Positions 24,794 to 43,371 of a stretch of 46,124 nt of DNA are shown one piece after another. Location of the stretch: IMG/VR virus record IMGVR_UViG_3300048577_000585, positions 1 to 46,124 of that record. One strand, given 5' to 3'. Source of the stretch: a virus (lineage: Duplodnaviria > Caudoviricetes). Position 1 is the stretch's first letter; every line of letters begins with the position of its first letter. The notes beneath the pieces were generated by a model that ran no database searches, was not told where the DNA came from, and was given only the letters and a program-made list of their open reading frames with translations. The position numbers and the translations under genes were made by a program.

Positions 24794-25048
24794 ATGAAAA
24801 ACCTGAAATTGTTCCCGGTGGATTTGACTATTCACCAGGTTAGAGCGATATCCACACCCGACGAGGACGGCGCGATTGACTACGTCTGCAATACAACGGA
24901 CGCTATGTCCACATGGCCGGACGCTGATCAGTGTGGCGCTGGCAGCATGATGACAATCGTCGACGAGACTGTCACGCCGCATCGGATTATCGGCATCGGC
25001 TGGTTTGACGGACTCGCCTGGGCGCTTCCGCAGGGGGTGAATCTGTAA
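24794..25048 (+). CDS. 84-aa virion protein with the putative Prp-cleavage leader
   Basis: AAGGAGG RBS; N-terminus MKNLKLFPVDLTIHQ resembles the scaffold and capsid leaders. Confidence 0.75.
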   Translation: MKNLKLFPVDLTIHQVRAISTPDEDGAIDYVCNTTDAMSTWPDADQCGAGSMMTIVDETVTPHRIIGIGWFDGLAWALPQGVNL

Positions 25049-26412
25049 TGCCGAAAGTAAAAGACAAACAAGCTCGGCTGCAGGGCGCGATTAATGGTGC
25101 GGCAATTAGCGAATTGGTGGACGGATATTTCTATAATTCCTGGGAAATCGGCGCCCTCCACACCGGCACTGGAGCGGACTACGCATCGACCACGCGCGTC
25201 AGAACGCCGTATATTTTCGTAAAAAAGGGAACACGGATAACCTTTAACGAGAAAAACATCATGGGCGGTCTTTTCATTTGCATATATACCCTAAACAAAA
25301 CCTATAAAAGCGGCAGCGGGTACTTCCAGGAGTATTTTGCCGAAGACGACTGCTATCTTAGGCTTACGAGCCGTTATCTTGACGACAGAACAATCACTGA
25401 CGCTTCGGCGTTTAATAACATCGTCAAGATTGAGGAAAAAGCCGCCGGTGTTCCGTTAGCTAAACCATACATCAGCGGCGACTTCAATAAGCTGTTTATA
25501 TCTGATGAGTGGACTAGGATTACAGGGGCGGCAATGACGGCTTCAACTATAACGGACGTATATGCAGGTTGGGAGACATTACGCCTGGCGAATACCGGCA
25601 GCATAACTCGGACGTTGCTTGGCAAAGGCGGCAACGCCAGCAATGTGGCAGATGCCGCCTTAGATATATATGAGTATACAATTTCACCGTCCGAGAACGG
25701 CGAAGGGACAGTGGCGAAAAAGTTGATCCCGCCTTATTTGGTGCTCATAACGGCAAATATGCACGGCGATGAGAAAACCACGACCTGGCAACTGCTTGAT
25801 TTCTTTACGCAAATGTATGCAAAGCTGGCTACTGATGAAACTATGGCTGCGCTGAAGTCAAGTGTGAAGTTTAAGATTATCCCGACTGTCAATCCCGGCG
25901 GTTATAATGCCAACACCAGAAATAATCTTCACGGTGTCAATCTTAACCGGAACTTCGACTATTTGTTCAGCTCGGCAACAGACGCAGACAAGGGCGTGGC
26001 TCCGTACTCAGAGCTTGAGTCGATGATCGTTAAGAACTGGCTTGCCGCAAACCAAGATGCCATAATGTATATCGATTTCCATAACATGAGCATCGATGAC
26101 GAAAATCTTTCATACATCAACTCACCGAACCGTGATATCCTACGGGTTTACTCCAGCGTTATCCGTCGGATGTCTGATGTTTGGAAGCGCCGTGGTATTT
26201 CGTACAGCGCCAATGTAGCTTATGGCTTTTTAGCAAATGATCAGTGGCCAATGGCTTGCCAGGACGCGTACTTCAATCATGGTATTACATACTCAACTAT
26301 CCTAGAGATTATACATACATACGGTACCCAGTATAGTGCCGATGTGCTCAGGATGGGGACGGAATTGTTCGGAAACTTCCTGTTCTCCATGCTGGATTTC
26401 ATTAGCCGTTAA
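25048..26412 (+). CDS. M14 zinc carboxypeptidase-domain protein, probably virion-associated
   Basis: HGDE, NPGG, TRNNLHGVNLNRNF, SELE, IDFH and TILE motifs; N-terminal beta-rich fibre-like region; TAATG coupling to the 84-aa gene. Confidence 0.85.
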   Translation: MPKVKDKQARLQGAINGAAISELVDGYFYNSWEIGALHTGTGADYASTTRVRTPYIFVKKGTRITFNEKNIMGGLFICIYTLNKTYKSGSGYFQEYFAEDDCYLRLTSRYLDDRTITDASAFNNIVKIEEKAAGVPLAKPYISGDFNKLFISDEWTRITGAAMTASTITDVYAGWETLRLANTGSITRTLLGKGGNASNVADAALDIYEYTISPSENGEGTVAKKLIPPYLVLITANMHGDEKTTTWQLLDFFTQMYAKLATDETMAALKSSVKFKIIPTVNPGGYNANTRNNLHGVNLNRNFDYLFSSATDADKGVAPYSELESMIVKNWLAANQDAIMYIDFHNMSIDDENLSYINSPNRDILRVYSSVIRRMSDVWKRRGISYSANVAYGFLANDQWPMACQDAYFNHGITYSTILEIIHTYGTQYSADVLRMGTELFGNFLFSMLDFISR

Positions 26413-26424
26413 AAACGCATATTT

Positions 26425-27510
26425 TTATTTCCGAAACACTTCACACAGTACATCGTCTGTTAAATCTCCAAAAACGGGCCCGTTTGTATATTGTAAAAAG
26501 TCTAGTTGAGGTGATTCAAGGTTCGCTTCAATTAAAACCGGCTCCCCGTCTTTGCCAACAGAGATATCCCAGCCAATAAGTTTATTGTAGGATAGACGGG
26601 GGGCTTGGCTTTTAACAAGATTAAGGATCTTATCAAACGAAGGGATTTCGTAATTTTCAAAAACAAACCCTTGAGGATGACGATCATGTTGAGTGCCGTC
26701 AGCGCTATATGCTTTGCTTTTTAAGTGGCCATCAGAGGTGATGCCGCAAACAATACCGCCAGAACTTGCATTGTCAACGATGCTATTGTTAACACCCATT
26801 CTTAAAACGTGCGATAATATATGCACTTTATTATTTAGGATTAAGGAAACCACGCGAATAGTATTTATCGATGATTGGTGAATAGCACTCATGCTTTGAT
26901 GTTGTTTAATTACCTCCTGCACGATGAATGATGGCACTGAGCTATAATCCTCAAAGGCCTTAATCAAATCGTTGCGGTCTTCGCAGTTAACAAGAGAAAC
27001 CTTTTTGCCGCCGTGTGTGTCGAGAGAAGGCTTGAAAATAACAGAATCGTGACGCTGACACAAATCAACGGCAGCTTCCAAAGATATTATTCGGAAGTCA
27101 TTATCAAGGTATAACCCATTGCTCTTGTGAACAATAGAATCTGGAGTCTTGCAGTCAAACAACAACGGGAAAAACGATTTATTTGCAAGAGGTGATTTTA
27201 GCTTATTAAAGTATGGGTTGATTACAGCATAATACAAATCATCCGGTATGTATCTACAGTCGAAGATACCGGTCACGGAGGTATACAGCTGATGTGAATC
27301 CAATCGAAAATTTTGGGTATAAGGCTTCCAATATTCTCTGATCTGGGATACTTGGTCTCTGCTTAAGACGTTTTGTCTGTCTTCAATTCTTTTTCTAACT
27401 ATCTTTCGGAAAAAATGGGTCATACGAATACGGTATAAATTATCAGGAGCTTTGTTAACGAAACCAACGACATTTTTATTAAAGAATTCTCGCAATCCCC
27501 GTTGATTCAC
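26425..27510 (-). CDS. Sugar-transfer-associated ATP-grasp ligase (moron)
   Basis: KPSLDTHGGK, IVQEVIKQH..SSINTIRV, LRMG..VDNASSGG, IGWDISV...VLIEAN; visibly AT-richer, opposite strand, AT-rich promoter region 27530-27570. Confidence 0.85.
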   Translation of the reverse strand: MNQRGLREFFNKNVVGFVNKAPDNLYRIRMTHFFRKIVRKRIEDRQNVLSRDQVSQIREYWKPYTQNFRLDSHQLYTSVTGIFDCRYIPDDLYYAVINPYFNKLKSPLANKSFFPLLFDCKTPDSIVHKSNGLYLDNDFRIISLEAAVDLCQRHDSVIFKPSLDTHGGKKVSLVNCEDRNDLIKAFEDYSSVPSFIVQEVIKQHQSMSAIHQSSINTIRVVSLILNNKVHILSHVLRMGVNNSIVDNASSGGIVCGITSDGHLKSKAYSADGTQHDRHPQGFVFENYEIPSFDKILNLVKSQAPRLSYNKLIGWDISVGKDGEPVLIEANLESPQLDFLQYTNGPVFGDLTDDVLCEVFRK

Positions 27511-32805: not shown

Positions 32806-35800
32806 ATGGCAAAATCATTCGCACAGTGGAAAGCTGAGCAGAATAAAAATAGACAGCAGACGTCCGTGACGCAGAGGGAGCAGCCGAAGTCTTTCGCATC
32901 ATGGGCACAAAAGAACCGGGGTATTCAGTCGACCCCGGATTTCGCTGCACGTCCGGTAAAGCCGTTTACGCCGCCGGAATGGATGACCACCAGAATGGAC
33001 GCCGCGGCTGATCCGGCGGTGTTGGAGGCGCAGCGGACCCTTGCCGCTGACCGGGCCGCGTTCAAGCCGCAGAACGCCACCGATATAGGGTTTTACAATC
33101 GTCCGACAGAAGGGTATGTTAACACCCTCCGTTCGGACCTGGACGAGTTACGCCGTCAGCGGCAGGACATGGGCGGTCCGTTAATGCCGGACGCGTCGCA
33201 GATGGACGCATATTCTGATCTGACCTTCAAGATTGACGCGCTACAGGATAACCTTGATATGTACGGCACCGACCTCTACAACACCAACCGGGCGGCGACA
33301 ATGCGGAGTATTGAGAGCGCAGCCGGGAGCGGCACGTTTGACGGCAAGTCAATCACCGACACCCGCGGTATTTATGGTATAGCGAAATACCTGACCGATG
33401 CCGAGTATAAGGCCGAAACGGACAAGGCGCTGATGGATAATGCCAAGCGGCGCGGGACCGCCGGTACGGGTTTGTGGGAAGTGCCGTCCGTATTCGGTGA
33501 TGCCGCCGACATGCAGCGATACGGCGAAGCTTCCACTATGACCAATCAGGAAAAAGAAACGCTGCTGTATTATCTGTCCATCGGTGACGATGAGACAGCC
33601 CAGCAATATTACGACGCGATTCAGCGTGACCTGCAGAAAAGGTATGCCGGTGAGCAATCCGACTTCACGCAGGACTTCACGAAAGAACACCCTGTCACCG
33701 GCACCTTGATGAACATCACGGCATCGCTCGGCCAGGGTGCGGGGTTTGTATCGAACACCGCGCAGAACCTCAAGAATCAGCTTGGCTCGGGCGAATACGA
33801 GCCTATCAACCTTTATAATATGGCGAACGCACCCACACGGATGGTAAACGACACGACGGAGGCGCTGACGGAAGATATCAAGTCGCCTTTCGGCAAGCTG
33901 CTTGCACAAACAGGCTTGTCAATCGGCCAATTCGCCGCCACGCTGCCGTTTGGCTCAACCGGCGCCCTCGCCATTATGGGGACGGCATCGGCGAATCAGT
34001 ATGCCTATGACGCACTGGAGCGCGGCGTACCGGCACATGAAGCCATGGCTGGTGCTACGGCGGCCGGCGTGATCGAAGTGCTGACAGAGAAGATCCCGCT
34101 GGACGAGCTGTTTAAGATCGCCGATGTAACAACATTTGCGCAGGCCTTAAAGGCTGTGGGTAAACAAGCCGGGATGGAAGGCATAGAGGAAATTGTCAAC
34201 TCCTACGCAAATTCCATTTCGGACCAGATTATCACCGGCGAAAAGTCTCAATTTAATCAGCTTGTGGCATCATATCAGGCAGACGGCATGACCCGCGACG
34301 AAGCGTATCGGAAGGCCATGCTCGACACATACGTCATGCAGCCGCTTCAAGCCGGTTTTGGCGGTTTCCTTTCTGGAGGCTTTATTGGCGGCGGCATGAC
34401 GGCGCTCAACTTCGCGCCGCAGCCGAAAACGCGCGTAGATCTGGCGACCGAACTTGCCAACAGACATCCGGACGCTGAACCGGACTTCGCCGCCATGGTT
34501 GAAGCGGCGGTGCAGCCGACGGAGCCGCTGCCTGTCCAACCAGCAGAAGCCCAGCCGCCCGAGCCGATTCAGCCGCCCACCGTCCCGGATTCATCCTATA
34601 TCGAAAAGGCGCAGGTTGATATTTTCCGTAAGGCCGGTCAATCAATGGTCCCTCTATCTTCTATCGTGCAGCAGGATGAGGAAGTCACGGACGCGCAGAT
34701 GACCGCATACGATGAAGGCATGGCCGAGGCGGTCAAAAAGATGCAAGCCGAGAATGCGGCGAAGAAACCCACAGAAAGCAAGCCGGTTGTGGAAAAGGTT
34801 GAGGCCCCTATTGAAATTCCGGCACAAAAGGTAGATAATGGCACCGTAAGCAAGCCGGTACACGAACAGATTGCAAATTCTGTATATAAATATGTCAGCG
34901 AGGGCCAGACCTTCACCGCTGAACGGCTGTTCGAAATTGCCGACAAAGCGTATGGCGGGACAATGGCTGCCGGGAAATATACGGTCAAGGACGCTTATGA
35001 TGCGGTCGAGTTGGCCGTGAACAAGTGGCTCGAAAAGTATGCGAAGTCCATGAACGGCGATAAGGTAACAGCCAGATCGGCAATCCCGGCCTTTGAGAAG
35101 CTTTTAGCCGCGCTCCCGACGCAGACGAAGCGTACCGCTGAGATGGAGGAATATCAGCAGTTTTCCACGCCTCCGAATATCGCTTATCTGGCGGCTTGGG
35201 CAGCCGGTATCACATCAAACGATACCGTCCTGGAGCCGAGCGCCGGTATTGGCGGCTTGGCTGTATTCCCCAAGGCGTGGGGCGCGAAGGTTTATGCGAA
35301 TGAATTGTCACCCCGCCGTCTTGAGTTCTTGAAGTCCATGGGTTTCACTGGGACTTTCAATTTCAACGCCGAGCAGATTGACAACCTGCTACCAGACGAC
35401 GTGAAGCCGAGCGTCGTGCTGATGAACCCGCCTTTCTCGTCTGCGGCCGGACGGATGACCACGAAAGCCACGGCCAACGCGAAACGGCATATCGAACAGG
35501 CGCTTAATCGGCTTGAACCGAACGGGCGGCTTGTCGCTATCGTTGGGCGCGGCATGGCAGACGACTCGCCGTCGTTCTCATCCTGGTGGAACGATCTGAA
35601 GCAGAAATATAACATCCGGGCGAACGTCCGCATTGACGGAAAGAACTATAAGAAATACGGCACGAATTTTGACATTCAGCTTGTGGTGATTGATAAAACC
35701 GGTGCGACTGAAAAGACCATAACCGGCGAATATACCGACCTTACACAGATACCTACAGTATTGGAGGGAATCAGAAATGATCGGGCAAGAGCAGAAAATA

Positions 35801-38800
35801 GCGCAGGTTCTTCAGCAGAACAAAACGCCGCTGTCTCTGGCGCTCCGGCAGCTGATACAGGAGCCGTCCGGGACGGAACTGTATCTGATAGAAGCGATTC
35901 AGGAAGCGTTGAACCTGCGGGTAGAACAGACAATAAACCTGGAAGCCGCCCTGACAACGCAAAATCTCCTGGTGCCGCTGTCCGTGGAGTTAAGCCCGGA
36001 ACAGGCATACAACCTACTGACATCGACGCAGGACGTGGAGGTAACGGACGAGTACCTTCTGTCATTAATACAACAGGAACCCAGCAGGGAAGCGAAGCTG
36101 TTACTTCTTCTGCAGGAAGTGCAGTCGAATCTGCAGGACAACGGATTCAACTTGACGCCAAGCAGCCCGGAAGCCAGAGAATAGCCGACACTCAAAAACT
36201 GATTGAAAACGCCGATAACGTATATTCCGAATACGCGCCGAAAAAGCTGTCTGTAAAGGGTGCCAAAGCGCATCCTGCAAAGCTGGTCGAGAGCGCGGCA
36301 ATGGCCGCCGTCGATCCACCTGATATTACCTATACGCCGAACCTCCCGCAGAGCCTTATTTCAAGCGGAGCTCTCTCGATAGCTCAGATTGAAAATATCG
36401 TTTATGCGGGGCAAAGCCATGCTCAGATGCTGAAAAACGGCACACGCCGCGGGTATTTCATCGGCGACGGCACCGGCGTCGGAAAAGGGCGCCAGATTGC
36501 CGGTATAATTCTGGACAACATGCGGCAGGGGCGGACAAAAGCCGTCTGGATAAGCAAAAATAATAGCCTGACAGAGGATGCCCGGCGTGACTGGTTGGAC
36601 ATTGGCGGCAAAAAGGACGATATCGTTGAGCTGGGCAAAGTGAAGCTCAACCAGAAGATATCCGCCGAGCGTGGCATTTTGTTCTCCACCTTCGGCACAA
36701 TCAAGACCGAGAAAGCCGACGGCTCCAGAATCAAACAGATTGAGGAATGGCTCGGGAAAGACTTCGACGGCGTGATTGTCTTTGACGAAGCTCACAACAT
36801 GGCAAACTCGATTGCATCCGAGGGTAAGCGGGGCAAGCAGAAGGCGGCGCAGATGGCTCTGGCCGGTATCAAGCTGCAGGAGGCTTTCCCTCAAGCCCGA
36901 ATCGTGTACGCGTCCGCAACGGGCGCGACGAAAATATCCGACTATGCATACCTGACCCGGCTCGGTCTGTGGGGCGAGGGGACAGCTTTCAACAGCGTCA
37001 ACGACTTCATCGAAAAAATCAGCGCCGGCGGCCTGGCCGCTATGGAACTGGTGGCGCGGGACATGAAGGCAATGGGCGTTTACATGGCCCGGAGCATTTC
37101 ATATGACGATGTTTCGTATGATACCATCACGCACGCGCTGACGCCGGTGCAGAATGAGATCTATAACACGATGTCCCGGGCGTGGCAGAAGGTTCTACAG
37201 AATATCAACAGCGTGCTGGAAACAACCAATGCCAACAAGAACAGCATGGCGAAATCGTTCGCCAGAAGTCAATTCTACGGAGCAATGCAGCGGTTCTATA
37301 ACCAGATCATCACGTCGATGTCCATGCCCTCCGTTATTTCTGATATTAAGAAGGAACTGGACAAAGGTAATTCAATCGTTATTCAGCTCGTCAACACGAA
37401 CCAAGCAGCCATGGAGCGTCGTATTGACGAGATGGATGAAAACCAAAGCCTTGACGATATTGACCTGACGCCTTCCGACACTTTGAAGCAGTATCTTGAA
37501 AAGAGCTTCCCGATTTATGAGTATGAGGAATACCAGGACGAAAAAGGCAATACACTGTCCAGACTCGTCACTGACGGAGAGGGTAAGCCGGTGATAAGCC
37601 GGGAGGCTGTGCGGATCCGCGATGAACTTGTCGCCGAACTTGACCAAATGAAAGTACCCGACGGCCCCCTGGAATTGCTCATTGATACATTCGGGGCCGA
37701 CCAGGTTGCTGAAGTCACAGGCCGGACGCGCCGCATCGTCCAGAAAAAGGACGATGACGGACAGATGCGCCGCGTCATCGAGCCGCGCACAACGCACATG
37801 GCCCTTGCCGACGCGCAGTTGTTCCAGGACGGTAAGAAGCGAATCCTTGTATTCTCCGACGCTGGCGGTACCGGCAAGAGCTACCACGCTGACCGCCGGG
37901 CGAAGAATCAGCAGAAGCGCATACATTACCTCCTACAGCCGGGTTGGAACGCCTCCAGCGCCACACAGGGCTTTGGCCGGACGCACAGGAGCAACCAAGT
38001 GTCAGCGCCGACATTCCGTCTTGTCACAACGGACATCATGGGGCAGAAGCGTTTTACATCGACTATCGCACGCAGGCTTGACCAACTCGGCGCGTTGACA
38101 AAGGGCCAGAGGCAAGCCGGTAGCGGCGTGTTTTCGCAGAAGGACAATCTCGAAAGCGATATCGCAAAGGACGCGCTGGCAAAGTACTATCGGAGTGTCC
38201 CGGTGGATTCGCTCATTAAGATGGGTCTTTACGACAAAATGTACGACCAGTACGGCATATGGAAGCCCGACGAAAACACCATCCGAGATATGGGCCTGTT
38301 CCTCAATCGTATCCTTTCGCTGGAAATTGACGAGCAGAACAGTATTTTCAACGGCTTTTTCACGGCGTTTGAAACGTCGCTTGACCGGGCAATCGAAGCG
38401 GGTACCGTCGACATGGGGCTTGAGAATGTCGTTGCCGATAAAATTGAAGTCAAGGACGAACTAACCGTCCGCAAGTATGACGGCGGTGCCGAAACGAAAT
38501 ATGTGCAGATGACCGCCTTCCGCAAGCCGCAGATTATGTCATATAAGCAAATTGAGGACTACCTTCCGAATTTCAAAGGGTTAGTAAGGATGGAAAGCGG
38601 CGAGGTCCGAGCCGTCTACCAGATGGCCAACAAAACCGAAAATACAGGCGAGATAGTCGAGCAATACCGGCTTCAGTCGCCGGTGCTGACAACAAAATCG
38701 GTGTATGTGAAGAAGACGCTGGACGAGAAAACCACTCCGATCCCGAAAAAAGAGTGGATGTCTGCATGGAACGAGCAGACCGCAAAGGCGCCGGAATTCA

Positions 38801-41800
38801 CGGAGCAGACGCTTCACCTTCTGACCGGCACGCTCCTTCCTATATGGAACCGGCTGCCGACAGAAAACACCCGGGTAATGCGCGTCATCACCAGCGACGG
38901 GCGGCAGTATCTTGGCCGCCTCATCAAAAACGATCAGATTGACAGCGTTCTCAAGGTGTTCGGAGTGGGCCGGACGAAGGAAGTGTATACGCCGGAGGAT
39001 GTCCACGCCAAGATTCTCGGCGATGGGTATGAAGCGGTGCTTGAAGCCGATAAGCAGAAGCTTGTCCGGCGGCGCGTCAGCGGAGAAAACCGCATTGAGA
39101 TTGTCGGTAATAACATATGGTTTTATGCCCGTTTCCCTGGGGTTATATCTGAAAAGATCAACTATACATTCCGATATTTTATCCCGACCAACAGCCAGGG
39201 CGTCCAGATCATTAAGCGGATCATGGACAACAACCCGATTGTCGAGTTGGTTAAGGGGACTCGGGCCGACGATGAGGATGGTGTCCGGGCAAAAATATTA
39301 CCGGCAGCCGCGCAAAACGCGACGCCGGTTAAGCTCAAGGAGTATTCAGAACATCAAAAAACAAATTGGCAAGGAAGCAAGAAGATCATCCTTTACGAAA
39401 ACCGCGCACAGTTAGAGGACTTCATAGAAACAGCCATTTCAGATGGTAGTTATCAAAGAAAGATGTATTTCGGCATGATACCAGATGCGCTGTCTATGCG
39501 GGTTAAGTCGGAAACTGGTATCGATATTTCGGAATACAACTTGGTACTGCGGGCAGATGAAATCAGGAAGATACTCCGCGACCATGGCGACGAATTAAAA
39601 GAAGCGAAACACGGACAGAGAGCGATCAACCGCGATGATTTTATCTCCATCCCGGAGATTGTTGTCAACCCTGACAGTATCGAGTTGTCCAACAAACTAT
39701 ACGATGGAAAACCGACGCTTCTTTTCAAGAAGGTGCTAAACGGTAAGACCGTGGCGGTGGCACACGCATCTATTCAAACGCACGACTTGACGGTTCAAAC
39801 AATGTATGCAGGTAAGAATAAAGGAAGCCTTGCTACTACGCCAAGTGGGGTTTCCCCCTTCTCGCATACGCCCGAAGCGCTTAGTAGTACAGCTTCCAAC
39901 GAAAATGTATCACAATCCGGTGATGGTGTCAAGTACGCCCTAACATCCTCCGAATGGGACGTCCCGCAAAACACTACGCCGGCCGCCGTCCGAAACGTCA
40001 TGAGCCTTGCGAACATGATAAATAAGATCAGGCACGACTTCGGGATATCCATAACAACCGGCAATATCCGTAAACAGGGTGCCGCCGGTGTGTATCTGGA
40101 GAAGCCCGGCACGATCAGGACGCGCATTGCCAACGACCTGTTGACCGTGACACATGAACTGGGACATCATTTTGATGAGTTGTACGGTCTGTCCGATGCG
40201 TCAGACGCGGTTCTGACGGAGATAACCGGCAATCTGCCGCAGGATACAAAGGACCGGTATACGGACGAGCAGCTACCCGGTGAAGGTGTTGCCGAGTTTG
40301 TCAGCCGGTATCTGAGCGACAAAGCGAAGGCCGAGGAAGATTATCCACTGTTTTATCCGTGGTTTACGCAGAAGCTGTTGAACGAGGAATTGATGCTCCT
40401 TGATGGGTTGGCAGACGAGGTTAACAATTACCTGTCCGCAGATCTCTCGGCACGGTCCAGCGCCGCGGTCAACATGCCGGGTGACACTCGCGATTTCCGT
40501 ACGCTCGGCGAAAAAGCGGGTGAAAAGGCAGACGCGGTATATCAAGCCAACGTTGACAGCAACCACGGCATTAAACGGTTCGCCGACTTCGCGGACGATC
40601 AGAACGTGTACAGGGTCGCCACAAACGCCGCATATGCTGACAGCGTGGCCAGCGCCAATATCATGTACAACCTGACCGACATCAACGGCAAAAAGGTTGG
40701 ACTCGGGCTGAAGCAAGCCCTTCAGGGTATCAACGTCCGCAACAGGCAGGAGTTCCGCGACTTCAATGAATACTTAAAAGTGAAGCACGGCCCGGAGCGT
40801 CTCAAAGAAGGATTAATGGTATCCTCCGACCCGATGTTGAATAAAGCCGACTTCATGAACTTCCGCGCGAAGGAGTTGGAGCATAAATACCCTAAATTCG
40901 CAGAAGCGGCGCAGCGCGTCTACACGTTCAATCAACAGCTCCTACAGACATGGGCGGTTGACACCGGCTTGATAGCTCCTGAGACGGCGCAGAAGTGGTT
41001 CGAGCGGTGGCAGTATTATGTACCATTCAACCGCGTTATGGACGACGACAGCGCGGGACCGAGCGTGAAGCGCGGGTTTGCGAACCAGCGGAGCCCGTTC
41101 AAGAAAGCGGTCGGCAGCGGTAGAGATATCATAGCCCCGATCGAAAGCATTGCCAGGAACGCGACGAAGCTCATCCAGGCGGCGATCAAAAACAATGTCA
41201 TGGTGGAAGTGACAACACTGGCCGATAAAAACAACGGCTCCGGCGCCTTTCTTGAAAAGGTACCGGCCCCGTTGACCGTGACGAAGTATAACGCCGTCGA
41301 ATTGAAAAAGAAGCTCAAAGTTGAACTGATGGAAGGGCTGCCGGATGAAGCGGTCGACGCAGCATTTGAGATTGTGAACAGCACCGTTGATGACATCCTC
41401 ATCCAGTATGGCCGGGGCAAGGCGTTCGGTGACACTGTAACGGTCATGAAGGATGGCAAACCGCAGTTCTGGCAGATCAACGACGCCATGATGCTCGAAT
41501 CCGTAACGAGCATGACCCCGGCGCGTATGCCGGCCTTCATCGAGGCTTACGGACGGATTACCCGGTTTATCACAAGCAACATCACAGGGAATAACATACT
41601 CTGGTCGATTTTCTCCAACCTTCCCCGCGATATTGCGACCTTCTGGAACTACTCCGAGAATAAGAACCCCATAACTATACTCGGAAATATCGCCAGTGGG
41701 TATGCCAACAATCTGAAAGCCTATACCGGGAAAGGCCGCATAGATCCGTACTACCTGGAGTATATGGCCATGGGCGGCGGGAGCAGCAACTCACTTCTGA

Positions 41801-43371
41801 CAGCCGACCGCGACAACGCGGCCCGAGCCATGGACCGACTGTTTGCGTACAATTCGGCGAAGTACCTGAATCCGCTGGAGTGGGTGGAGGCGTTCTCCAA
41901 CGCCATTGAGGGCGGCCCCCGGTTTGCTTATTACCGCATGCGGCGAATGGCCGGGAAAACCACGTCGGAAGCATTCTATGATGCGATGGAGATCACGACG
42001 AATTTCAAGCGCCACGGTACACAATCTCAGCAGATCAATAAAATTGTGCCGTTCTACAACGCCAGCGTCCAGGGCCTTGACCGGTTCGCCCGGTGGGTTA
42101 CAGCTTCCGACGCGCCGAAGGATATGCGCGGCAAGGTCATAGCAAAACGGTGGAGCGTTTATATCGCGTCCGGGTTGTTTATGGCACTCGCTCAGGTTCT
42201 GGCGGCCAGACGGCGGGACGAGGAAGGTTATGAGCAGCTCTCCGCATATGTGAAGAACAATTATCTCAACATTCCTCTCGGTAACGGCAAGTTCTTCTCT
42301 ATCCCGAAACCCCGGGAGCTGGGCGCTTTAAGCACTACCTTTGAGCGCATCCTCGAACAATACATGCTCGGCAATGATAAGGCATTCAACAACTACGATG
42401 AGTATATTACATCACAATTCCTGCCGCCGGTCATGTCCGGTGTGGCAAAAGCCGGTGTCGGGGCTGTGTCGGGCGATAGCGAAAAGATCATGCAGGGCGG
42501 CAGTGAGGCGCTTGGCGATTTCGGACTTGCGGGTACGCTGGTGGCCATGCTTGCCAATCGTGACTTCCGGGGCAATCCTATCGTCTCAAAAGGCATGATG
42601 ATGCTGGAGCCCAGGGCGCAGTTCAACAACCGGACTAGCAAGATTGCCATTGCCGTGGGGAACGCAACTAACATGAGCCCGCTTATGATCGACTATTTCT
42701 TAACCAGCACGCTCGGCGGCTTCTGGAAGGTGGTCAAATCACTCTGGCCCGAAAATAAAAGCGAGCGCGATTTAACGCTCGGCATAGAGGCGTCGTACAT
42801 AAAAGACAGCCGGTATTCGACCGATATCGTGAACGACTTCTACGACCAGCGGGATAAGGCTGACAAGTTCCATGCGACGTATTCCGAGAACGCCGAGTAT
42901 AAGATCGCAGCCAACGATTACGACGACATGGCGACATTCTACAGCCGCTACAACGCGTTGGCAAAGAGCAGCGCGGACACGCTCGAAAACCTGCAGACCC
43001 GGCAGATGGTCATTGAGATGCTTGAACAGTTCGTTAACGAGCAGGAGAGCGGTCAAAGGACCACAGCCAAAAAGGCGCTGGACGAGTTGGCGGCTTCCGT
43101 GATGAGCACGACATTCTATCCCCAGGTTATGCCGCAGCAGCTTACCATAGGCGAAGGGGGCAAAAAGGAAACCCATCAGCTGACGGCTGCACAGTATGTT
43201 GAGTATCAGACTGTTTATCTGGACTATTACTGGCAAGAAGTCACGCAGCGACTCAACCGGAACTACCGGACAGATGAGGAAAAAGCAAAGGCTGTTACCG
43301 CCGGGAAGGCGACGGCGGCCGAGTTGGCGAAGCGATATATGGCGAAGAAACTCGGTGTCCGATATTTCTAA
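32806..43371 (+). CDS. 3521-aa polyvalent (DarB-like) protein: N6A-MTase, strawberry-notch SF2 helicase, PBECR-like RNase, HExxH metallopeptidase, LPD38-like C-terminus
   Basis: LEPSAGIG (~35230) and NPPF (~35425); GDGTGVGKGR (~36462), DEAH, YASAT, QGFGRTHRSNQ; HGDELKEAKHGQRAI..IPEIVVNPD (~39580-39680); HELGH (40153); IPKPRELG (~42300). Confidence 0.88.
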   Translation: MAKSFAQWKAEQNKNRQQTSVTQREQPKSFASWAQKNRGIQSTPDFAARPVKPFTPPEWMTTRMDAAADPAVLEAQRTLAADRAAFKPQNATDIGFYNRPTEGYVNTLRSDLDELRRQRQDMGGPLMPDASQMDAYSDLTFKIDALQDNLDMYGTDLYNTNRAATMRSIESAAGSGTFDGKSITDTRGIYGIAKYLTDAEYKAETDKALMDNAKRRGTAGTGLWEVPSVFGDAADMQRYGEASTMTNQEKETLLYYLSIGDDETAQQYYDAIQRDLQKRYAGEQSDFTQDFTKEHPVTGTLMNITASLGQGAGFVSNTAQNLKNQLGSGEYEPINLYNMANAPTRMVNDTTEALTEDIKSPFGKLLAQTGLSIGQFAATLPFGSTGALAIMGTASANQYAYDALERGVPAHEAMAGATAAGVIEVLTEKIPLDELFKIADVTTFAQALKAVGKQAGMEGIEEIVNSYANSISDQIITGEKSQFNQLVASYQADGMTRDEAYRKAMLDTYVMQPLQAGFGGFLSGGFIGGGMTALNFAPQPKTRVDLATELANRHPDAEPDFAAMVEAAVQPTEPLPVQPAEAQPPEPIQPPTVPDSSYIEKAQVDIFRKAGQSMVPLSSIVQQDEEVTDAQMTAYDEGMAEAVKKMQAENAAKKPTESKPVVEKVEAPIEIPAQKVDNGTVSKPVHEQIANSVYKYVSEGQTFTAERLFEIADKAYGGTMAAGKYTVKDAYDAVELAVNKWLEKYAKSMNGDKVTARSAIPAFEKLLAALPTQTKRTAEMEEYQQFSTPPNIAYLAAWAAGITSNDTVLEPSAGIGGLAVFPKAWGAKVYANELSPRRLEFLKSMGFTGTFNFNAEQIDNLLPDDVKPSVVLMNPPFSSAAGRMTTKATANAKRHIEQALNRLEPNGRLVAIVGRGMADDSPSFSSWWNDLKQKYNIRANVRIDGKNYKKYGTNFDIQLVVIDKTGATEKTITGEYTDLTQIPTVLEGIRNDRARAENSAGSSAEQNAAVSGAPAADTGAVRDGTVSDRSDSGSVEPAGRTDNKPGSRPDNAKSPGAAVRGVKPGTGIQPTDIDAGRGGNGRVPSVINTTGTQQGSEAVTSSAGSAVESAGQRIQLDAKQPGSQRIADTQKLIENADNVYSEYAPKKLSVKGAKAHPAKLVESAAMAAVDPPDITYTPNLPQSLISSGALSIAQIENIVYAGQSHAQMLKNGTRRGYFIGDGTGVGKGRQIAGIILDNMRQGRTKAVWISKNNSLTEDARRDWLDIGGKKDDIVELGKVKLNQKISAERGILFSTFGTIKTEKADGSRIKQIEEWLGKDFDGVIVFDEAHNMANSIASEGKRGKQKAAQMALAGIKLQEAFPQARIVYASATGATKISDYAYLTRLGLWGEGTAFNSVNDFIEKISAGGLAAMELVARDMKAMGVYMARSISYDDVSYDTITHALTPVQNEIYNTMSRAWQKVLQNINSVLETTNANKNSMAKSFARSQFYGAMQRFYNQIITSMSMPSVISDIKKELDKGNSIVIQLVNTNQAAMERRIDEMDENQSLDDIDLTPSDTLKQYLEKSFPIYEYEEYQDEKGNTLSRLVTDGEGKPVISREAVRIRDELVAELDQMKVPDGPLELLIDTFGADQVAEVTGRTRRIVQKKDDDGQMRRVIEPRTTHMALADAQLFQDGKKRILVFSDAGGTGKSYHADRRAKNQQKRIHYLLQPGWNASSATQGFGRTHRSNQVSAPTFRLVTTDIMGQKRFTSTIARRLDQLGALTKGQRQAGSGVFSQKDNLESDIAKDALAKYYRSVPVDSLIKMGLYDKMYDQYGIWKPDENTIRDMGLFLNRILSLEIDEQNSIFNGFFTAFETSLDRAIEAGTVDMGLENVVADKIEVKDELTVRKYDGGAETKYVQMTAFRKPQIMSYKQIEDYLPNFKGLVRMESGEVRAVYQMANKTENTGEIVEQYRLQSPVLTTKSVYVKKTLDEKTTPIPKKEWMSAWNEQTAKAPEFTEQTLHLLTGTLLPIWNRLPTENTRVMRVITSDGRQYLGRLIKNDQIDSVLKVFGVGRTKEVYTPEDVHAKILGDGYEAVLEADKQKLVRRRVSGENRIEIVGNNIWFYARFPGVISEKINYTFRYFIPTNSQGVQIIKRIMDNNPIVELVKGTRADDEDGVRAKILPAAAQNATPVKLKEYSEHQKTNWQGSKKIILYENRAQLEDFIETAISDGSYQRKMYFGMIPDALSMRVKSETGIDISEYNLVLRADEIRKILRDHGDELKEAKHGQRAINRDDFISIPEIVVNPDSIELSNKLYDGKPTLLFKKVLNGKTVAVAHASIQTHDLTVQTMYAGKNKGSLATTPSGVSPFSHTPEALSSTASNENVSQSGDGVKYALTSSEWDVPQNTTPAAVRNVMSLANMINKIRHDFGISITTGNIRKQGAAGVYLEKPGTIRTRIANDLLTVTHELGHHFDELYGLSDASDAVLTEITGNLPQDTKDRYTDEQLPGEGVAEFVSRYLSDKAKAEEDYPLFYPWFTQKLLNEELMLLDGLADEVNNYLSADLSARSSAAVNMPGDTRDFRTLGEKAGEKADAVYQANVDSNHGIKRFADFADDQNVYRVATNAAYADSVASANIMYNLTDINGKKVGLGLKQALQGINVRNRQEFRDFNEYLKVKHGPERLKEGLMVSSDPMLNKADFMNFRAKELEHKYPKFAEAAQRVYTFNQQLLQTWAVDTGLIAPETAQKWFERWQYYVPFNRVMDDDSAGPSVKRGFANQRSPFKKAVGSGRDIIAPIESIARNATKLIQAAIKNNVMVEVTTLADKNNGSGAFLEKVPAPLTVTKYNAVELKKKLKVELMEGLPDEAVDAAFEIVNSTVDDILIQYGRGKAFGDTVTVMKDGKPQFWQINDAMMLESVTSMTPARMPAFIEAYGRITRFITSNITGNNILWSIFSNLPRDIATFWNYSENKNPITILGNIASGYANNLKAYTGKGRIDPYYLEYMAMGGGSSNSLLTADRDNAARAMDRLFAYNSAKYLNPLEWVEAFSNAIEGGPRFAYYRMRRMAGKTTSEAFYDAMEITTNFKRHGTQSQQINKIVPFYNASVQGLDRFARWVTASDAPKDMRGKVIAKRWSVYIASGLFMALAQVLAARRRDEEGYEQLSAYVKNNYLNIPLGNGKFFSIPKPRELGALSTTFERILEQYMLGNDKAFNNYDEYITSQFLPPVMSGVAKAGVGAVSGDSEKIMQGGSEALGDFGLAGTLVAMLANRDFRGNPIVSKGMMMLEPRAQFNNRTSKIAIAVGNATNMSPLMIDYFLTSTLGGFWKVVKSLWPENKSERDLTLGIEASYIKDSRYSTDIVNDFYDQRDKADKFHATYSENAEYKIAANDYDDMATFYSRYNALAKSSADTLENLQTRQMVIEMLEQFVNEQESGQRTTAKKALDELAASVMSTTFYPQVMPQQLTIGEGGKKETHQLTAAQYVEYQTVYLDYYWQEVTQRLNRNYRTDEEKAKAVTAGKATAAELAKRYMAKKLGVRYF
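35777..36184 (+). CDS. Overprinted 135-aa gene in the +1 frame of the giant ORF
   Basis: GGAGG at 35763-35767 and ATG 35777; L/E/Q-rich helical sequence while the host frame here is a low-complexity G/A/S/R/T linker. Confidence 0.65.
   Translation: MIGQEQKIAQVLQQNKTPLSLALRQLIQEPSGTELYLIEAIQEALNLRVEQTINLEAALTTQNLLVPLSVELSPEQAYNLLTSTQDVEVTDEYLLSLIQQEPSREAKLLLLLQEVQSNLQDNGFNLTPSSPEARE
39814..39897 (-). ncRNA. Putative antisense sRNA of about 85 nt embedded just after the PBECR-like domain
   Basis: Minus-strand TTGACA(39932-39927)-17-TGnTACATT(39909-39904); closing stems GGAAGC/GCTTCC and CTACTA/TAGTAG; followed by TTTATTCTT. Confidence 0.6.

Follow-up and report, generated by a model that had tools for sequence, protein, structure and literature searches.

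Genes nested in another frame of a larger gene are already known. In phage lambda, Rz1 is embedded in the +1 frame of Rz, the gene of its putative partner, and the two spanins are membrane lysis proteins. Here we describe a candidate nested gene in a viral DNA of 46,124 nucleotides (Caudoviricetes; positions 1 to 46,124 of IMG/VR record IMGVR_UViG_3300048577_000585; this whole stretch is called the window below). It lies in the +1 frame of a giant gene, in the spacer between a DNA methyltransferase (MTase) and a helicase-type ATPase, and its protein family appears to be undescribed. Like Rz1, it is a +1-frame phage gene within the gene of a putative partner. However, both frames of Rz1/Rz are functional over the overlap, whereas the frame of the giant gene (the host frame) is unconstrained here. 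Another likeness is comS in srfA of Bacillus subtilis, which, as far as the account in PMC12350097 goes, is also a small, same-strand, out-of-frame gene wholly within a very large multidomain gene. However, ComS is an unrelated protein, whereas our case involves an MTase-ATPase polyvalent host gene of phages and plasmids, and its layout recurs in many lineages.

For the giant gene, the closest described system is DarB of phage P1, which the main text of PMC5512222 presents as the archetype of the methylase-helicase dyad and as a virion protein guarding DNA against restriction. In the same text, TP and NPPF motifs are given for the gamma-class N6-adenine MTases of polyvalent proteins, the MTase and ATPase of the dyad are thought to operate as one unit, and both phage infection and conjugation bring polyvalent proteins into a new cell. 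Like the DarB dyad, the giant gene of the window (32806..43371, plus strand; 3521 aa) lies in a virion gene block and encodes a gamma-class N6-MTase (TP and NPPF motifs) in fusion with an ATPase of the Strawberry-notch SWI2/SNF2-like type. The MTase and a conserved helical domain N-terminal to it occupy 34855..35778 on the plus strand (residues ~684-991). The Strawberry-notch-type superfamily 2 (SF2) ATPase follows at 36268..38424 on the plus strand, with matches to Pfam AAA_34 (residues 1155-1455, E 4e-119) and Helicase_C_4 (residues 1622-1873, E 3e-83). The fusion of an N6-MTase with an SF2/SWI2-SNF2-like ATPase, the LPD and PBECR domains and the virion context identify the product as an MTase-helicase polyvalent protein. 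However, the main text of PMC5512222 (supplements aside) does not mention an overlap or an alternative reading frame, and we found no matching nested gene after the MTase of P1 darB. P1 also encodes Ulx, a 17 kDa protein that aids DarB localization according to PMC9024508. Ulx is likewise a small protein encoded with a DarB-type gene and offers a model for an accessory role, by analogy only. However, its gene is separate and lies downstream, and no homology to the nested protein was detected (hhalign probability 0.2%, E 0.37). In the literature, apart from subscription papers and the supplements of PMC5512222, we found no description of any gene embedded in the linker between a methylase and a helicase.

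In the window, the nested gene (35777..36184, plus strand; 135 aa) is +1 relative to ORF 32806-43371 and covers host residues 991-1126, between the MTase with its NPPF motif and AAA_34. It lies wholly within another gene, in another frame, and has its own start signal: a Shine-Dalgarno (SD) motif GGAGG (35763..35767, plus strand), a 9-nt spacer and then ATG at 35777. The SD motif is within the last MTase helix (host motif LEGIRND; helix H199-211 of the host model). Thus, the GGAGG-N9-ATG signal and the 135-codon +1 ORF claimed by an earlier sequence-only reading of this DNA were borne out at 35763-36184. In the overlap, 94 of 137 host codons have A or T in the third position, whereas 44 would be expected (z=9.3); the giant gene has no other such peak. 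In addition, L, Q, E and I together make up 50% of the +1 product, compared with at most 30% in 20,000 resamples. No sigma-70-like promoter was seen on the plus strand upstream of the nested start, and the RNA structure at the start was nothing unusual. Taken alone, the open frame of the window says little. The +1 frame stays open in 5.1% of 20,000 synonymous resamples and in 3.3% of within-region shuffles, the same giant gene has longer stop-free +1 runs (178 and 153 codons), and the SD of the window is no stronger than host residues L-E-G predict (p=0.365). ORF length was dropped as evidence for a gene.

To estimate conservation, three scans gave 122 loci; with the window added, and 17 loci without an anchor and 22 duplicates removed, 84 distinct linkers were left. 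The host was in one open frame in all 84. We found a +1 ORF of at least 80 aa, starting 12-27 codons past the MTase anchor, in 81 of them (79 ATG, 2 GTG), and in the three exceptions the linker was short or unrelated. The 81 nested ORFs encode 87-159 aa, form 45 clusters at 60% identity and are 11-33% identical to the protein of the window. They share the motif LNxxPLxQxAxxxL..DPxxLYLxQLxxWxL, with conserved N15, P18, L19, L27, L35, Y36, Q39, W43 and P74 in addition to core leucines. A second set was collected with MTase and helicase alignments, which found 160 viral loci and yielded 127 entries, partly on the same contigs as the first set; 6 truncated entries and 3 without a helicase match were left out of the linker count. 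The ORF was present in 115 of its 118 MTase-helicase linkers, and the family profile was matched by 89. Furthermore, 75 of the 100 ORFs outside the first set matched a profile built without them (E<1e-3). We also noted ORFs that retain the start site with off-family content (L029:4950-5210 and 25 ORFs of L123-L282), which could reflect replacement or fast divergence. Bacteroides phage BS-TP4, a cultured phage (L290:2255; PQ571277.1 near 10032), has an unannotated acidic +1 ORF of 115-119 aa at the same spot, with no family-profile match and no clear SD.

The start signal is also conserved. In 45 of 45 clusters, the SD paired with the anti-SD more strongly than the synonymous resamples did (-8.8 vs -5.7 kcal/mol), and other +1 ATGs in the MTase gave -1.7 kcal/mol. 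The nested start is kept in one fixed register, and the host codon carrying it ends in T in 43 of 43 ATG clusters, a count that is partly circular because loci were picked by their ATG; the catalytic Asn codon is AAC in 24 clusters and AAT in 21. Homologues thus retain both the ribosome-binding site and the open +1 frame, as expected from the sequence-only reading. The constancy of the start bears on the idea that ribosomes shift into the +1 frame and make a shorter isoform (MTase plus helical domain) ending before the helicase, with the SD-like motif as stimulator. SD-like elements are able to stimulate frameshifting, and the ORF begins exactly where the MTase ends. However, the start codon is at a constant register (79 ATG and 2 GTG of 81) with initiation-type spacing, the upstream matrix has no conserved slippery run, and a +1 stop lies just 1-2 codons ahead of the start in 11 of 45 clusters. 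Frameshifting is quite improbable in our judgment.

To see which frame is under selection, we calculated the ratio of nonsynonymous to synonymous differences (pN/pS) from DNA alignments of nine hand-picked groups of close relatives, covering 56 of the 81 sequences; the ratios are pairwise counts without multiple-hit correction, and the pairs are non-independent. In the overlap, pN/pS was 0.17-0.75 for the +1 frame and 1.09-2.71 for the host frame in 9 of 9 groups. The flanks on both sides showed the opposite pattern, with a host pN/pS of 0.02-0.44. For example, the largest group (n=22) had 0.40 for the +1 frame and 1.24 for the host frame in the overlap, and a host value of 0.10-0.11 in the flanks. 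Purifying selection thus shifts to the +1 frame over the overlap, as the sequence-only reading would predict. The same results bear on the possibility that there is no gene, and that the ORF is a shadow of a linker rich in G, A, S, R and T. Such linkers seldom yield +1 stops, and resamples stay open in 5% here and in up to 90% in GC-rich relatives. However, a shadow does not fit the frame-specific selection, the conserved protein motif, the SD excess or the third-position shift, and we regard it as hardly credible. On the strength of these sequence comparisons, the nested ORF is almost certainly a real protein-coding gene.

The host-frame linker (residues 999-1110; 35800..36135, plus strand) seems to owe its existence to this gene. 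Nested length and linker length were strongly correlated (r=0.88, n=78 linkers under 210 aa). Since linker length follows nested length, the linker is read as a passive product, and we infer that it is a by-product, the off-frame reading of the nested gene. It follows that the word "overprinted" in the sequence-only reading was likely the wrong way round, because the host frame is the unconstrained one. De novo overprinting on an older conserved frame does not fit the data: the host frame has pN/pS >1 and predicted disorder, and the +1 frame is conserved with a predicted fold. Our quick tree (69 rows, with L183 and L290 as long, unsure branches) is unrooted and does not give the order of events.

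AlphaFold2 predicted seven helices for the nested protein (pLDDT 86.5, pTM 0.80), and host residues 999-1110 were predicted disordered (pLDDT<50; residues 219-330 of the model). The protein of the window has a net charge of -12. For the window, the predictions agree with the picture of an ordered, acidic, helical product coinciding with a disordered host linker. However, net charge ranges from -20 to +2 in the family (median -5; 7 of 45 neutral or basic), and only 2 of 32 conserved columns are acidic. DNA mimics such as Ocr and ArdA have a conserved, strongly acidic surface. In this family strong acidity is not conserved, and N, P, L, Y, Q and W account for most of the conserved positions. Since the charge varies, DNA mimicry, one of the roles suggested by the sequence-only reading, is unlikely. 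The structure searches (Foldseek against PDB and BFVD, and VIA-align) gave no clear match to a known DNA mimic.

The family could not be linked to a described one. Searches of Pfam, PHROGs, NCBIfam and PADLOC with 61 members gave no consistent family, and TnpV (PF14198) was not supported by Pfam, with 0 of 61 members matching its profile at E<=0.01. There was no convincing match in a PDB sequence search, no Foldseek match to PDB or BFVD at E<=0.001 and no usable match in ESM Atlas; the best VIA-align Z was 3.7. The absence of family and fold matches does not establish a new fold. Word-seeded homologue searches with the single protein, with alignment A1 and with alignment A7 (with longer proteins) found nothing. 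A full phmmer search returned 13 proteins that are plausibly related and, as a false hit, a repeat protein (P0017), and the nine relatives looked up were on contigs of 549-4530 bp. Two family members, P0014 and P0023, have N- and C-terminal extensions (265-302 aa), so a fused or free-standing form is possible; a locus search with P0014 gave no locus. No match to the nested protein was obtained by tblastn against 50,697 phage records, and in a search with the plasmid copy, it matched only itself.

The results of species distribution showed that carriers are present in records titled Bacillota, Spirochaetota, Planctomycetota, Lentisphaerota, Thermodesulfobacteriota and Rhodothermota. In addition, four gammaproteobacterial plasmids carry the nested gene, two of them typed as conjugative; their gene tables, which are incomplete and in one record absent, omit it. 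Carriers include plasmid NC_016108.1 of Methylotuvimicrobium alcaliphilum 20Z, with a nested ORF of 114 aa at L283:3881, and Methylomonas sp. LL1. The nested gene is tied to the MTase end rather than to the whole module. Counted from the MTase end, its start falls on one and the same codon in 78 of 97 loci, whereas 8 to 282 codons lie between its stop and the helicase. In two loci, L175 and L165, the MTase and the nested gene are present but the records gave no helicase match; the 5' end of the giant gene is within the record in L175 and outside it in L165. The MTase of L165 has the catalytic motif SPPF in place of NPPF. Thus, the earlier claim that the gene is locked to the MTase-helicase module stands for its fixed offset from the MTase end, but not for the helicase side, and the gene is absent in seven relatives. 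This distribution bears on the possibility that the nested protein works with the Strawberry-notch ATPase, or with the whole MTase-ATPase pair, instead of with the MTase alone. Both enzymes flank the nested gene in nearly all loci, and the view in PMC5512222 that they act as one unit would suit such a partner. However, the nested gene is kept without a helicase behind it in L165 and L175, and on alphaproteobacterial plasmids helicases of this type commonly occur without a nested gene (3 of 3 examined). We consider an ATPase partner improbable.

In the reading that we tentatively favor, the nested protein assists or restrains the MTase module, a putative function to which we give slightly less than an even chance. 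The nested gene, which occupies the +1 frame of the methylase-helicase spacer and has a ribosome-binding site of its own, is maintained by selection. A small, predicted helical protein is likely made from the same mRNA by independent initiation at the SD-AUG. It would bind the MTase module inside the producing cell and may keep this module silent or folded up to the point where the giant protein, once packaged or transferred, arrives in a new host. Co-folding of the MTase module with the nested protein scored 0.00 and gave no answer either way.

A number of observations do not sit easily with such a partnership. The nested gene is missing in seven relatives (L023, L025, L090, L194 and L287-L289), and L023, L025, L090 and L194 lack it, yet their NPPF motif looks intact where seen. 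The L023 record, which is 91% complete, has no copy elsewhere. The absence in seven relatives, without a copy elsewhere in L023, means that the gene is not an obligatory antidote. The helicase-less cases, L165 and L175, come from records that are 34-37% complete, and the linkage to the MTase end may merely reflect that the SD is encoded in the last MTase helix. Furthermore, identity is about 20% in the nested family vs 51-54% in the MTase, and 25 of 100 new ORFs in the slot fail to match the family profile; such divergence would be uncommon in a protein that partners closely with a conserved enzyme. In favor of a real gene, a start, a long +1 ORF, an A/T excess at third positions and a profile match never occur together in the seven relatives. 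In L288 and L289 an ATG lies close to the site, but the SD is weak, the product is rich in Arg and Pro, and the third-position shift is absent. On the tree, the absence of the gene needs 3-4 changes, and L090 is inside a fully supported carrier clade, where both the ORF body and the start were lost.

These losses could also be explained if the nested gene is real but independent cargo, and the SD-AUG site is an expression slot whose small proteins act independently in conflicts with the cell, for example in anti-defence, host-factor binding or possibly DNA mimicry. Off-family ORFs in the same slot (L029, the 25 of 100 new ORFs and that of phage BS-TP4), fast divergence and repeated loss fit this idea, and comS and srfA have independent functions as far as PMC12350097 describes them. 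However, a single family fills the slot across records of at least six phyla in both phages and plasmids, no free-standing copy was found in the flanks of the first 122 loci, and the version with a DNA mimic meets the difficulty that acidity is not conserved. To our judgment, independent cargo is rather unlikely, and the brake or accessory of the MTase module is the reading we carry forward.

The other features of the window agree with a temperate phage, encoding an integrase, a terminase, a P22-like portal, a major head protein, an internal virion protein, a holin and an amidase. In the giant protein, PHROG DNA-methyltransferase matches cover residues 704-1032, and the conserved helical domain N-terminal to the MTase has a GG motif; a Pfam scan there gave no LPD36 match. 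PBECR3 (residues 2227-2339) and LPD38 (residues 3140-3313) follow. The PBECR3 nuclease region (39286-39900) has mildly raised A/T third positions (0.45-0.57) and +1 stops, and was perhaps recently acquired. At 25048-27510, a gene with a zinc carboxypeptidase domain and an opposite-strand, low-GC ATP-grasp (ATPgrasp_ST) gene lie inside the virion block. Among the related loci, L027, L030 and L183 have insertions within the helicase region that look like inteins by their end motifs.

In addition, further SD-led +1 ORFs of 61-75 aa were seen in other linkers of the same giant genes (L002:3009, L038:3768, L098:2519 and L100:8505), with a third-position shift of z 4-9 and no Pfam match. A bolder and rather doubtful proposal is that polyvalent proteins lengthen when intact small genes are read straight through in a different frame, with low-complexity linkers as the shadows of these genes. 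The nested gene of the window would then encode an MTase brake that stays in the producing cell, so that the enzyme is on only after injection or transfer, and these four ORFs would be more passengers.

Our results extend an anti-restriction-type module that is widespread in phages and conjugative plasmids by a protein family that had gone unannotated. Furthermore, they indicate that a disordered linker in a giant protein of a mobile element can be a real gene read off-frame. If the nested protein does regulate the MTase, it would help to account for how a DNA-modifying enzyme is controlled before the virion delivers it.

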